NCBI GenBank assembly: GCA_010671865.1
Contig: GCA_010671865.1_4083.1
Length of the DNA stretch: 64,000 bases
Source of the DNA: a phage
Reading direction: 5' to 3' (one strand)
The first letter of the stretch is position 1, and each line of letters starts with the position of its first letter. The position numbers and the translations under genes were made by a program. The notes beneath the pieces are model-generated. The model saw only the letters and a program-made list of their open reading frames with translations, was not told the origin of the DNA and ran no database searches. This document shows positions 5,280 to 51,949 of this stretch, piece by piece.

Positions 5280-5766
5280 TAAAAGCCCTCTTTAATTCTT
5301 TTACATTTTTAATGAATACTTTCATTGCAGAAATCTCAAAAGATAATGTATTAAATTTGCAGTACTTTTTAAAGTACGACATAATATATAACATTTTGAG
5401 TTCTTTTTCTGTATAAATTAAACTGTTTTGAAAGTAACTTTCTTCGGAAATGTCCGTAAGAAAAGAATAAAATGTATTTTGCTTGTGCACAATTTTAATA
5501 CTATCAGACCAAGATTTGTATGAAACGTAATCAGTACGTGCAAAATCATATAGTGAATTAGATGTATCTGTGTATGTTTCCGAGAACACAATCTTATATA
5601 TCTTATCTTGAATTCGAGAACATATGTACCTATGGTCATCTGTCTCACTGATTGCAATGTATCTATGGAGTAAATCTTTATGAGCATTGATGAACTCAAA
5701 CACTTCTAAACACTCCTTAGCGAACTTCATAGTTTCTCTGTACTTTCGGTTCATTAGTCTCTCCAA
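5263..5766 (-). CDS. hypothetical protein, FQ-motif superfamily
   Basis: 167-aa ORF; motif EESYFQNSLIYT. Confidence 0.6.
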   Translation of the reverse strand: MERLMNRKYRETMKFAKECLEVFEFINAHKDLLHRYIAISETDDHRYICSRIQDKIYKIVFSETYTDTSNSLYDFARTDYVSYKSWSDSIKIVHKQNTFYSFLTDISEESYFQNSLIYTEKELKMLYIMSYFKKYCKFNTLSFEISAMKVFIKNVKELKRAFNVHRK

Positions 5767-6167
5767 ACTTTACCAGGGAAGTGTTTCTCGTAGTACTCAT
5801 CATCACTTAACATATAATCAGGAGTTTCTACTTCTATGGTTTTGAAGATTGTTTCTGGAATGTGTGTGACTTTATTGGGTTGTACTTTATGTTCGCGTAA
5901 AACCTTCTGTATCGCTCCTAGACGTTGTAAATCGATACATGTAGGAAAGACTAAGCTGTACTGAAATAACTCATCAGGGGTCATTATAGACACATCTTTA
6001 GCTTGTTTGATTTGATAATTAGTACTAATGAATATATCAAATCCTTGTACAGCATTATAGCTTACATAGGTTGTTTTATTTTTGTCAATAGGAGCACTTA
6101 AACGATATCCATATATCCCGTGTTGGTCAACAAGACAGCGTTGCATAATTTTAATCATTTCTAACAT
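5754..6167 (-). CDS. hypothetical protein, FQ-motif superfamily
   Basis: 137-aa ORF; motif DELFQYSLVFP. Confidence 0.6.
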   Translation of the reverse strand: MLEMIKIMQRCLVDQHGIYGYRLSAPIDKNKTTYVSYNAVQGFDIFISTNYQIKQAKDVSIMTPDELFQYSLVFPTCIDLQRLGAIQKVLREHKVQPNKVTHIPETIFKTIEVETPDYMLSDDEYYEKHFPGKVWRD

Positions 6168-44985: not shown

Positions 44986-45209
44986 TTTAAATCCTCAGTT
45001 AGTTAAGGTGTCTCGCCTTGATGTAATTAATTATACGCTAATCTCTTAATCGTGCAAGTACTTTTTATTACTTTTTGCAAAATACTTTAAACGCTCTCAA
45101 TCGCATTCTAACGGCCTTCACGCCACCAGCTAGGGCAATGCATCAGATAATCAGTTTAATGCGTTAGAATCGATTCTATCGGGTGCTAGTGGACTGGTAA
45201 ACGATAGAT

Positions 45210-45238
45210 ACAAAAAAGCCCACTGTTTAAGGTGGGCT
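45210..45238 (-). terminator. intrinsic terminator
   Basis: minus strand AGCCCACCTTAAACAGTGGGCT hairpin followed by TTTTTTG; downstream of 45260..45742. Confidence 0.6.
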
Positions 45239-45259
45239 AGTGATTCAGTACTTTAATTG

Positions 45260-45742
45260 TTATGCTTCAACTTTGCGATGAGCTTCGATCCATTCCTCGC
45301 GAGTCATACCGCTTTCTTTGATAGCGTCCAGTACTACCGCAATGCAGTTACCGCGTACAGGAATCATATGTTCTTCCCCGTTATCAAGTACTACAGTAAC
45401 ACGTTCTTGAATCCATTTTTTAGGTTTAGATTCTGGCTTATCTTCACCATACTTAACCGCCAGGGCTTTATGTGCCATTTCTACAACTACTTCCAGATCC
45501 AATCCAGACACCGCCGCCTGGATACTTTCGATTGTTGCTTGTAGTTCTGCTTCACGGGCTTTTTTCTGTTCTTCCAGTTCTGCTACCTTTTTGGCTTGCA
45601 GTTCTTTAGCTTCACTGTACGCAATGTTAAAATTGTTGCGTACTGCTTTCATGGTATCGTTATCCAGGTCAGCCAACAATTCAGCAGCAATAACAGTATC
45701 GTTTGAAATCAGTGCTTTCAGGAATGATTTTACATTAGCCAT
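45260..45742 (-). CDS. hypothetical protein with predicted coiled-coil segment
   Basis: track ORF trimmed to MANVKSF (GAGGA RBS); heptad-like KELQAKKVAELEEQKKAREAELQATIESIQAA. Confidence 0.55.
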   Translation of the reverse strand: MANVKSFLKALISNDTVIAAELLADLDNDTMKAVRNNFNIAYSEAKELQAKKVAELEEQKKAREAELQATIESIQAAVSGLDLEVVVEMAHKALAVKYGEDKPESKPKKWIQERVTVVLDNGEEHMIPVRGNCIAVVLDAIKESGMTREEWIEAHRKVEA

Positions 45743-45939
45743 TTTATAAATCCTCAATTAAAGTTTAGTTTACGTTTATTAGTGTATCAAAGTTTTATCG
45801 ACGTGTCCAGTTTTTCGTTCGACTTACTGGCGGTCTACTTAGTGCTCCCCGTCTTGATGTAATACATTCTACGCCTTTTTGTGGTAATGTCAACTACTAT
45901 TTTAAAACTATTTTTAAAGTATGCAGTACTACGATACTA

Positions 45940-45973
45940 CAAAAACAAAAAAGCCCACTGTTTAAGGTGGGCT
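45940..45973 (-). terminator. intrinsic terminator (same hairpin sequence as 45210..45238)
   Basis: identical AGCCCACtgtttaaGGTGGGCT hairpin with A/T runs; downstream of 45991..46290. Confidence 0.6.
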
Positions 45974-45990
45974 AGTGATTCAGTACTATA

Positions 45991-46290
45991 TTATAAACAG
46001 TTAATTACTCCGGTGTGCGTTACTTTCTCAGTATCCATAACAGTGACCGAACCGCGTTTAGTACTTGCATCGTAATAAATTGTCGTGCTACCTTTTTCGT
46101 CTTCTTCATGGAACGGCCCGTTTTTAAATGCTTCTGGCTGGATCTCTAAATCCTTTAAAACAATCTCGCCAGTACTTTCATTGGTCATCGCTACAGTGCA
46201 CTGAATGAATTTTTCACTACTTACATCTAACGACGCATTAACAGCGAAAGAGGAAACAGATAAAGCCAGGGCGATGATTGCAACTTTCAT
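45991..46290 (-). CDS. hypothetical secreted/periplasmic protein
   Basis: 99-aa ORF; N-terminal signal-peptide-like MKVAIIALALSVSSFAVNA with A-x-A cleavage context. Confidence 0.5.
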   Translation of the reverse strand: MKVAIIALALSVSSFAVNASLDVSSEKFIQCTVAMTNESTGEIVLKDLEIQPEAFKNGPFHEEDEKGSTTIYYDASTKRGSVTVMDTEKVTHTGVINCL

Positions 46291-46375
46291 TAGTATATCC
46301 TTAGTTACCAGGGGGGAACCGCTCCCCCTTGCGATGTAAAATATTGTACAGTACTAAAAACTAATTGCAAGTACT
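46291..46375 (-). promoter_or_regulatory. promoter plus leader hairpin cassette
   Basis: TTGCAA-16-TGTACAATAT, hairpin GGGGGAGCGGTTCCCCCC then TGGTAACTAAGGA RBS; approximate. Confidence 0.45.
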
Positions 46376-46612
46376 TTATGATTTTTTATAAAACATTTCG
46401 GCAGTGATATTTTTACCCGTTGGTTGTACTTTATCCAGAATTTTTTGATGCCCTGGCCGTCCAAATGAATATGATCCGTAAACCGTAAACCAGTAGTTAC
46501 CCTCAGTGTTTACATGTACAGCACAATAGGGAACGCCCCGCGATTCATCACTAGTAAAGTGTGCTACCGTTCCCGTTACATTCGAAGACGTTGATTTGAT
46601 TTGTTCGACCAT
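46376..46612 (-). CDS. hypothetical protein
   Basis: 78-aa ORF. Confidence 0.55.
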   Translation of the reverse strand: MVEQIKSTSSNVTGTVAHFTSDESRGVPYCAVHVNTEGNYWFTVYGSYSFGRPGHQKILDKVQPTGKNITAEMFYKKS

Positions 46613-46720: not shown

Positions 46721-46749
46721 TTGACAAGTGCATCCAGTACTGGCATAAT
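46721..46749 (+). promoter_or_regulatory. candidate plus-strand promoter (antisense or small-RNA transcript)
   Basis: TTGACA-17 nt-CATAAT on plus strand in a minus-strand gene region; a palindromic hairpin lies ~80 nt downstream. Confidence 0.4.
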
Positions 46750-46819: not shown

Positions 46820-46848
46820 GAAAAAAGAAAGGGGATCAATTGATCCCC
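46820..46848. terminator. bidirectional terminator (perfect palindrome)
   Basis: GGGGATCAATTGATCCCC flanked by A-run and T-rich run; downstream of minus gene 46855..47076. Confidence 0.55.
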
Positions 46849-46854
46849 TCGTTG

Positions 46855-48647: not shown

Positions 48648-48676
48648 ATTGACAGCATTATCAAGTACTGGCATAA
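48648..48676 (+). promoter_or_regulatory. candidate plus-strand promoter
   Basis: TTGACA-17 nt-CATAAT on plus strand; same AGTACTGGCATAAT core as 46721..46749. Confidence 0.4.
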
Positions 48677-48851
48677 TATACCCCATGACAACAGCTAACC
48701 CACCGGGTGCACAATTGTAACTATACTAAACTACTTTTTCTATAGATACACTCCCGCACCCTATGGGCTACGGCTTATCTGCCAATGAATACATTATGCC
48801 AGTACTGACAAAATAAGTCAATACCGGCAATTGTAAAGATTTGTAAACTGC

Positions 48852-51743: not shown

Positions 51744-51949
51744 GAAGGGTAAAGGGGTAATTGAAATTAAGGTGAAAGTAATAATTCAGTACTAATCATT
51801 GCGTGATTACTTTTGATTACATTTGATGTAATTTGCAAAATGGAAAAGGAGCTTGGAAACTACAAAGTACGGCAGACTTCCTCTGCCTACTTAGTGGCAT
51901 ATCAGTACTGCTACGTTCTTGATTAAACGTGAACATTCCTGTACTCTAG

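Follow-up and report, generated by a model that had tools for sequence, protein, structure and literature searches.

Does a short gene that stands apart in a phage genome, and whose product opens with an apparent signal peptide, encode a protein that is exported into the host envelope, and what might such a protein do there? The question is raised by a 99-codon open-reading frame (ORF) at 45991..46290 on the minus strand of a 64,000-nucleotide (nt) stretch of phage DNA (contig GCA_010671865.1_4083.1 of GenBank assembly GCA_010671865.1), the whole of which we refer to as the window. A preliminary description of this DNA had placed a small gene with a classical signal peptide at these positions without stating its strand, and had suggested a part in superinfection exclusion or envelope modification. 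The ORF that we find agrees with it exactly in coordinates and in product start, running from an ATG at 46290 to a TAA at 45993..45991 and encoding a precursor of 99 amino acids (aa). The product is very probably an exported early periplasmic protein, and entry exclusion is the role for which we make a tentative case below.

The gene has been deposited many times as 'hypothetical protein', and one of its homologues was already flagged as secreted. New here are a definition of the family that takes in lipoproteins as well as copies in prophages and an island, a confident all-beta model unmatched in the PDB, the placing of the gene in a terminal-repeat early region and the correction of a misleading database label.

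A conserved leader and predicted export

Codons 1-19 (46234..46290, minus strand) encode a predicted Sec-type signal peptide, so that the precursor begins MKVAIIALALSVSSFAVNA|SLDVSSE; the assignment draws on rule-based features, on a leader that is kept in all orthologues, and on the AlphaFold2 (AF2) model of the full-length protein, in which residues 1-25 are unstructured (predicted local distance difference test score, pLDDT, <50). The n-region has a lysine at residue 2 (M-K, charge +1), the h-region VAIIALALSV is the best 10-residue window with a mean Kyte-Doolittle (KD) value of 2.96 and holds no charged residue, and the c-region is polar (SSFAVNA|SLD), with valine at -3 and alanine at -1 in keeping with the -3/-1 rule. 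Cleavage by signal peptidase I is predicted after Ala19 (VNA|S), with no proline at +1, and the site is kept as ATA|S in the orthologue from phage EJP2. The classical signal peptide described earlier is thus recovered region by region. We also applied a crude rule-based signal-peptide filter to the six frames of the window, which contain 267 ORFs that start with ATG and reach at least 40 aa. It let through five, among which the 99-aa ORF has the most hydrophobic core; three of the other four are unconserved plus-strand ORFs and one is marginal. The 99-aa ORF is the only convincing conserved gene of the five, which bears out the earlier contrast with its cytoplasmic-looking neighbours.

The leader is also a property of the family. 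A positive n-region and a hydrophobic core, followed by either an AXA-type site or a lipobox, were present in all 21 members examined, down to 27% identity; four relatives carry an L(S/T)GC lipobox, which the window protein lacks, and the homologue in Klebsiella phage Muenster is annotated 'putative secreted protein' from InterPro SignalP regions. We consider this conservation to be stronger evidence for export than any rule applied to a single sequence. Leader rules and family conservation together indicate that the 99-aa protein is almost certainly exported by the Sec pathway into the host periplasm, a conclusion that is well supported, if not proven.

If the leader were not cleaved, it would instead act as a signal-anchor, and the product would span the inner membrane once, as a bitopic protein whose beta domain lies in the periplasm, similar to T4 Imm or the HK97 gp15-type exclusion proteins, or else a regulator of lysis. 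The hydrophobic stretch VAIIALALSVSSFAV does extend to 15 residues if the SS pair is tolerated, and the lack of structure that AF2 gives to residues 1-25 is compatible with this arrangement. The hydrophobic core proper, however, spans only about 10 residues before giving way to the polar c-region and the VNA|S site (ATA|S in EJP2), and the lipoboxes of relatives mean that their leader is processed. We regard an uncleaved anchor as very unlikely, and return to its genomic neighbourhood below.

A phage protein family without an assigned function

The window comes from an Asteriusvirus (PBECO4/121Q-type) jumbo coliphage: its DNA is 94-97% identical to that of PBECO4-like Escherichia jumbo phages of this genus (PBECO4, G17, UB, fEgEco12 and others), in line with the phage origin given earlier. 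Annotated 300-nt orthologues of the gene were found in all of the PBECO4-like Asteriusvirus relatives matched, and orthologues occur in 41-51 phage records. The fEgEco12 orthologue, g10, is ~96% identical to the window protein, and more diverged orthologues are found in 121Q (81% protein identity) and EJP2 (67%). The ratio of non-synonymous to synonymous substitution rates (dN/dS) in pairwise Nei-Gojobori comparisons with five orthologues is 0.06-0.19; on the strength of these values the ORF is a real protein-coding gene under purifying selection, and the overlapping plus-strand ORFs are noise.

The leader codons show a further pattern at the nucleotide level. Between the window and 121Q, the proportion of synonymous differences (pS) is far lower in codons 1-19 (46234-46290) than in the mature part (0.13 vs. 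0.65), and the comparison with EJP2 gives 0.32 vs. 0.77. This suggests either an extra nucleotide-level constraint near the start codon, acting on translation initiation or mRNA structure, or homogenisation with the adjacent cassette.

The protein matches a single PHROG family at E <= 0.01, phrog_31669, and does so over its full length (E = 8.6e-63, residues 1-99 against profile positions 1-99 of 99); all 17 aligned relatives likewise match it. Among its members are 121Q gp276, PBECO4 AGC34948, phAPEC6 gp530c and the 'putative secreted protein' Muenster gp039. In length, leader, cysteine pair and motifs these are like the window protein, with no difference of substance, and phrog_31669 is a family without an assigned function in any member.

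A predicted all-beta mature domain

The mature 80-aa domain (45994..46233, minus strand), supported by the match to phrog_31669 and by the AF2 model, is acidic, with an isoelectric point (pI) of 4.58 and a net charge of -7 at pH 7. Modelled by AF2 without its leader it scores a pLDDT of 91.5 and a predicted template modelling score (pTM) of 0.75, and consists of six consecutive antiparallel beta strands and one short, 4-residue helix. Only Cys31, Gly94 and Cys98 are invariant across the family, and two further motifs, (Y/F)HEED-x-(T/K)GSTT and (K/R)G-S-x-T-x-MD, are strongly conserved. Cys31 stands at the start of strand 1 and Cys98 at the end of strand 6, so that a disulfide between them would, if the model holds, staple the edges of the sheet into a small closed barrel, as would fit oxidative folding in the periplasm.

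No solved structure resembles this model closely. Foldseek searches of the PDB with both the full-length and the mature models returned no chain at E<0.001; the highest template modelling scores (TM-scores) lay at 0.52-0.57 and belonged to Cap15 and a de novo designed barrel, both of them generic small barrels, and LolA and lipocalins appeared at E ~0.03-0.3. Against BFVD, Foldseek matched only uncharacterised phage proteins. Searches of PDB sequences with the single protein and with the family profile gave nothing meaningful, scans of 17 members against Pfam and NCBIfam gave only sub-threshold, leader-driven matches (BhsA, YgiW, lipoproteins), and PADLOC, which searches the defence models of PADLOC-DB, matched none of the 17 at E<=1. 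The fold is thus predicted with confidence and lacks a solved relative, and an experimental structure would be new.

Probable early expression from the terminal-repeat region

The preliminary description had credited the gene with a promoter/hairpin cassette and a terminator of its own, and all of these elements are present. A consensus scan places a strong sigma-70-type promoter at 46343..46375 (minus strand), downstream of an A/T-rich stretch, with the core AGTACTTGCAA at 46375..46365, the -35 element TTGCAA at 46370..46365, a 16-nt spacer and the -10 element TACAAT at 46348..46343. Just downstream of the -10, the 5' untranslated region forms a GC-rich stem-loop, GGGGGA...UCCCCC (46308..46332, minus strand; -12.9 kcal/mol). 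On its own this hairpin is not more stable than shuffled sequence (z = -0.34), and we accept it as real because hairpins of different sequence recur at the same position in at least nine other cassettes. As no T-run follows the stem-loop it is not a terminator, and it probably acts as a 5' stabiliser or as a hairpin that modulates translation. A Shine-Dalgarno sequence, TAAGGA (46298..46303, minus strand), lies 7 nt upstream of the ATG, and downstream of the TAA stop codon (45991..45993, minus strand) a terminator scan finds an intrinsic terminator (45942..45973, minus strand), composed of the stem-loop AGCCCACCUUAAACAGUGGGCU (45973..45952) and then UUUUUUGUUUUU, with a 7-bp GC-rich stem and a T-run (-11.9 kcal/mol, z = -1.8). 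The identical stem-loop is found again at 45238..45217, and the homologous terminator site is annotated as such in phage G17.

These signals do not set the gene apart in the way that had been supposed. The promoter belongs to the repeat families D1-D7, and its core AGTACTTGCAA has 19 copies on the minus strand from 32.9 to 50.3 kb, where chance would give 1.7. Most of these copies take the form TTGCA(A/T)-16-TATAAT and precede a hairpin that keeps its position but not its sequence. The promoter/hairpin cassette is therefore generic and not special to the 99-aa gene. The terminator scan found no terminator between the upstream 78-aa gene (46612..46376) and the promoter of the 99-aa gene, so transcripts from the promoter of the former probably read through into the latter, and the two share a terminator. 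The gene is thus only in part 'isolated', as it had been called: it has its own promoter/hairpin and terminator, yet is one unit of a tandem array of at least 15 near-identical early cassettes.

The position of the array indicates when it is likely to be read. An alignment of the first 24 kb of fEgEco12 to the window places position 1 of that phage at window position 51891. The left end of fEgEco12 has been confirmed experimentally, and its direct terminal repeat measures 20,993 bp (PMC13070987). The equivalent of this repeat extends down to ~31-32 kb of the window, and the cassette array is restricted to the region that aligns with it. The 99-aa gene lies ~5.6 kb inside, counted from the inferred left end, and is transcribed away from the terminus; g10 occupies 5,284-5,583 in fEgEco12, and homologues are also located within the annotated terminal repeats of Muenster, fENko-Kae01 and vB_Ec-M-J. 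In the related phage CBB, RpoD-like promoters that stand before short ORFs and reach into the terminal repeat were interpreted as an early host-takeover region (PMC5259590). The phAPEC6 orthologue, gp530c, is not mentioned in the paper on the 62-protein virion proteome of that phage. From promoter type, genome position and the virion paper we infer that the 99-aa gene is an early, non-structural gene read by host RNA polymerase.

Relatives in other phages, prophages and an island

The family extends well beyond Asteriusvirus, with Rak2-like jumbo phages among its carriers. An exhaustive profile search of 1.84 billion representatives yielded 15 proteins and a second search four more, all of 96-153 aa except for one 1099-aa match, which covers a 28-residue stretch only. 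With tblastn, copies were found in an Alcyoneusvirus (Muenster), in the Salmonella jumbo phages Munch, 7t3 and SE_PL, in Klebsiella phage fENko-Kae01 and Erwinia phage Hallingskeid, and in phages of ~140 kb that include the Vequintavirinae (rV5-like) phage UPEC06 as well as A5-4, W70, A73 and SSBI34.

Copies in Escherichia coli, E. fergusonii and Citrobacter lie in prophages integrated by a large serine recombinase, and in all three hosts the small and large terminase genes follow closely downstream, an arrangement typical of accessory ('moron') genes. The member in E. coli and E. fergusonii is a lipoprotein version, placed directly after another secreted protein and near a further lipoprotein, within a run of two or three exported proteins and lipoproteins; a phage-lipoprotein gene is found ~1.6 kb further upstream of the Citrobacter copy. 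Since some members sit near the late/terminase region of prophages, where lysis genes are frequent, this context could be taken to favour the uncleaved signal-anchor discussed above. Against that, none of the genes around the prophage copies was found to belong to a holin, endolysin or spanin family, and on this ground we rejected a lysis-cassette reading; PHROG matches to spanins are at leader level only.

A different setting is that of the Enterobacter and Klebsiella copy, which resides in an island of ~10 kb between two serine recombinases, together with CTD10/MC6 conflict-system genes, an Xre-type regulator and an N6/N4 DNA methyltransferase.

Some of the neighbouring genes merit description in their own right. 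In the E. coli-type prophage (locus L021, 9043-10459), the exported run consists of a lipoprotein of 126 aa, a secreted protein of 131 aa that has a Cys...Cys layout, and the family member, itself a lipoprotein of 152-153 aa; the E. fergusonii counterpart (locus L024, 9624-10462) is in assembly CP079884.1, and the prophage is integrated next to a molybdate-type ABC transporter operon, as identified from Pfam families. The proteins of the E. coli-type run have no PHROG or Pfam assignment. On the Klebsiella quasipneumoniae chromosome (loci L005/L006, 9699-10375, with close variants in Enterobacter), the gene for a 124-aa homologue overlaps by 4 nt, and is translationally coupled to, a gene for a 101-aa lipoprotein with the lipobox LTGC and a beta-rich Cys...Cys layout like that of the family. 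Homology to the family was considered both for this island lipoprotein, which lies upstream of the homologue in Enterobacter, and for the 131-aa E. coli prophage protein; hhalign was unsupportive, and we treat the two as look-alike architectures. In the early arrays of two distant jumbo phages a family member is within one or two genes of a toxin-like gene of the RelE/ParE superfamily, which is annotated YafQ-like in Muenster (locus L010, 3908-4156) and has a Pfam ParE_like match in locus L017 (4498-4779).

Comparison with Spackle, lysozyme inhibitors and receptor-blocking lipoproteins

One database record offers a ready identity for the protein: GenBank PP777464.1 (XBS49092.1; locus L001, 3530-3829) names the 96%-identical fEgEco12 g10 'protein spackle'. 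T4 Spackle (gp61.3) mediates superinfection exclusion by inhibiting the gp5 tail lysozyme in the periplasm, and its fold is an alpha-helical bundle (PMC7677548). The resemblance in format is close, each being the product of a small early phage gene, with a Sec leader, two cysteines, precursors of 97 (Spackle) and 99 aa, mature forms of 75 and 80 aa, and an acidic pI of ~4.6 (PMC7677548 for Spackle). Besides the label, the one match that speaks for common descent is to the PHROG 'spackle periplasmic' family (phrog_1586), at E = 0.16 and confined to residues 1-40. Beyond the leader the likeness ends. BLASTP of the 99-aa protein against gp61.3 gave no alignment, Pfam T4_Spackle (PF25676) matched neither the 99-aa protein nor g10 at E<=10 (T4 Spackle itself scores 1.6e-44), and hhalign of the family profile against T4 Spackle aligned 14 leader residues at 24% probability, a score that an unrelated exported prophage protein also obtained. 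The predicted structure is six-stranded and all-beta, not helical, no Spackle chain is among the top 50 PDB matches listed by Foldseek, and the fEgEco12 paper makes no mention of Spackle (PMC13070987). We reject homology to T4 Spackle, which we judge extremely improbable. On these comparisons the 'protein spackle' label is a mis-annotation driven by signal-peptide similarity, and the resemblance is one of kind, not of membership; the label, corrected here, could propagate to other Asteriusvirus records.

A second candidate family was suggested by eye. E. coli MliC is co-linear with the phrog_31669 proteins: its two cysteines are ~65 residues apart and enclose, in the same order, an S/G-rich loop and a K-G motif. 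MliC/PliC and phrog_31669 both have a periplasmic domain with 65-67 residues between two cysteines, a beta-barrel in the former and a beta domain that the cysteines could close into a barrel in the latter, and both families include soluble and lipoprotein versions and the S/G-rich loop followed by a K-G motif. MliC/PliC is an antiparallel barrel of eight strands with a closing disulfide, as opposed to the six strands predicted here. For none of the 17 members did Pfam MliC (PF09864) give a match at E<=1. The leader was all that hhalign aligned, both to E. coli MliC and to an alignment of 14 MliC sequences (narrow, at >=74% identity, and so a weak test), and no MliC/PliC structure is among the top 50 Foldseek matches. 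Membership in MliC/PliC was not supported by PF09864 or by single-sequence and profile-profile hhalign.

The absence of homology leaves room for analogy, a specific sub-case of exclusion in which the protein would inhibit, on a different scaffold, a tail-associated or T4-type lysozyme of glycoside hydrolase family 24 (GH24) in the periplasm and so block wall penetration by a superinfecting phage, as a functional counterpart of Spackle or MliC/PliC. The Spackle-like dimensions, two-cysteine layout and pI of ~4.6 would suit such an inhibitor, as would the PliC/MliC-like occurrence of soluble and lipoprotein versions with a ~67-residue Cys-to-Cys domain, S/G-rich loop and K-G motif. A possible target exists, in that Asteriusviruses encode a basic (pI 9.2) GH24 T4-type lysozyme (PMC12805682). 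We nevertheless consider this improbable: the similarity to Spackle is limited to the leader and the folds differ, the MliC searches are blank or leader-bound as described, and the Enterobacter island lacks a phage tail of its own for such an inhibitor to counter. Because net negative charge is not conserved, a Spackle-like electrostatic mode of binding is moreover not a family trait.

T5 Llp and the Cor proteins of phi80 and N15 provide a third comparison. They, too, are small envelope-located proteins encoded by early or accessory ('moron'-type) phage genes. They are lipoproteins that block the FhuA receptor, and four phrog_31669 members are lipoproteins, unlike the window protein with its lack of a lipobox. 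No significant hidden Markov model match to the Cor or Llp families was obtained, the nearest being to phrog_1119 (Cor) at E = 0.002 in two relatives and at leader level. The gene near the Citrobacter prophage copy is a Pfam 'Phage_lipoprotein', itself with a weak, leader-only match to Cor.

A tentative role in entry exclusion

The explanation that we favour runs as follows. The gene would be transcribed early by host RNA polymerase from its sigma-70-type promoter in the terminal-repeat region, and the precursor exported by SecYEG and cleaved after Ala19. DsbA would then oxidise Cys31 and Cys98 to a disulfide that joins the first strand to the last and so closes a small barrel, and the soluble acidic protein would build up in the periplasm within minutes of DNA entry, with lipobox-bearing relatives tethered to a membrane instead. 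There it may bind a conserved envelope-side target through the face formed by HEED-x-GSTT and K-G-S-x-T-x-MD, and the infected (or lysogenic) cell would most likely be closed to incoming phage, which amounts to superinfection or entry exclusion. As unrelated phages and a non-phage island carry the family, a component of the host envelope, or an entry function that many phages share, is a more likely target than a part specific to this phage. The role would be analogous, and not homologous, to those of T4 Spackle, T5 Llp and phi80 Cor; P1 Sim is a further analogue for closing the cell to incoming phage.

Taken whole, as an exported early accessory protein with a likely part in entry exclusion, this is our best explanation, held at a little under even confidence. 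Entry exclusion as the function is, by itself, a more tentative proposal, plausible from context, namely the host-type promoter, the terminal-repeat early region, the moron-type clusters of prophages and the island. Several observations weigh against it. Searches with BLASTP, Pfam, NCBIfam, PADLOC, PHROG, hhalign and Foldseek revealed no resemblance, in sequence or in fold, to a characterised exclusion, lysozyme-inhibitor or defence protein. Purifying selection and a highly conserved C-terminal half are unlike the arms-race signature that proteins binding phage parts often show, and the net charge of the family ranges from +0.9 to -6.2, so that negative charge is not conserved. The proximity of Cys31 and Cys98 is deduced from strand topology, and early timing from promoter type and genome position, not from transcripts.

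The same evidence for export and early expression would serve a protein that acts in the phage's own infection, by binding or inhibiting a host component in the periplasm or outer membrane such as a murein hydrolase, a protease, a nuclease, an envelope-stress sensor or the phage's own receptor. Such binding might stabilise the infected cell's envelope, prolong the long jumbo-phage cycle or keep progeny off debris; T5 Llp has a second role of this last kind, in which it prevents the adsorption of progeny to debris. A conserved host target would be in keeping with the low dN/dS and the conserved binding face, and also with the presence of the family in very different mobile elements, all of them in Enterobacteriaceae. 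The Pfam, NCBIfam and Foldseek searches, however, linked the protein to no known inhibitor (MliC, Ivy-type, Inh/Omp19, ecotin and others), and occurrence in prophages and an island without a running lytic cycle fits protection by a resident element somewhat better. We regard a role in the phage's own infection as the main rival, although less likely than not, and entry exclusion remains the reading that we carry forward.

A broader proposal can be framed around the family as a whole. The phrog_31669 proteins may constitute an unrecognised family of disulfide-stapled, six-stranded mini-beta-barrels, periplasmic or lipoprotein, without a PDB match, traded among virulent jumbo phages (within their terminal-repeat early region), rV5-like phages, and the temperate prophages and integrative islands of Enterobacteriaceae, and conferring entry exclusion or inhibition at the cell-wall or receptor step by means distinct from Spackle, Llp/Cor, Imm and Sim. 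In this full form the proposal is speculative and we hold it to be doubtful; if true, it would add to the envelope defences of phage against phage a class that is structurally new.

Therapeutic use is being developed for jumbo phages of the Rak2/PBECO4 group, and >80% of their genes are unannotated. Our analysis assigns one of their terminal-repeat early genes to the periplasm, in a family common to prophages and an integrative island. It offers a candidate for how jumbo phages, and lysogens that carry relatives of the gene, might shut out competitors, which bears on the design of phage cocktails. Small exported phage proteins without an assigned function are common, and current understanding is not overturned.

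Organisation of the early cassette array

The array around the gene has features of its own. Between 32900 and 50310 on the minus strand there are ~19 near-identical cassettes, each with an A/T-rich stretch, the core AGTACTTGCA(A/T), a 16-nt spacer and TATAAT, and in most of them 'ACATC' and a GC-rich 5' stem-loop come a few nt after the -10. The stems differ (for example, GCGGGAAC..CCCGC, GUGGGGAA..CCCCAC, GGGGAG..CUCCCC), so that structure is kept and sequence is not.

A 55-nt direct repeat, 91% identical between its copies at 45201-45255 and 45936-45990, brackets a 160-aa gene (45260..45742) and contains the two identical terminator stem-loops (AGCCCACCTTAAACAGTGGGCT and a T-run; 45238..45217 and 45973..45952). 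Such a repeat is a ready substrate for the gain or loss of gene cassettes by recombination. In fEgEco12, phAPEC6 and others, an extra 231-nt gene (g11 or gp529c), absent from the window, lies between the 99-aa gene and the next gene (window ~45960-45998 vs. 5576-5852 in fEgEco12, locus L020), and PBECO4-type records have a ~500-bp insertion elsewhere in the 1-kb neighbourhood of the 99-aa gene. Because these insertions differ between phages, we regard the early array as a hot spot for insertion and deletion.

A scan against Rfam gave no family at threshold across the whole window. Two strong promoter-like elements, TTGACA-17-(TG)CATAAT, are present on the plus strand at 46721-46749 and 48649-48677, matching at 11 of 12 positions and 78% identical to each other over 40 nt, and a hairpin (46830..46849) follows the first. 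Both are antisense to the all-minus gene array and could be promoters of antisense transcripts or small RNAs.

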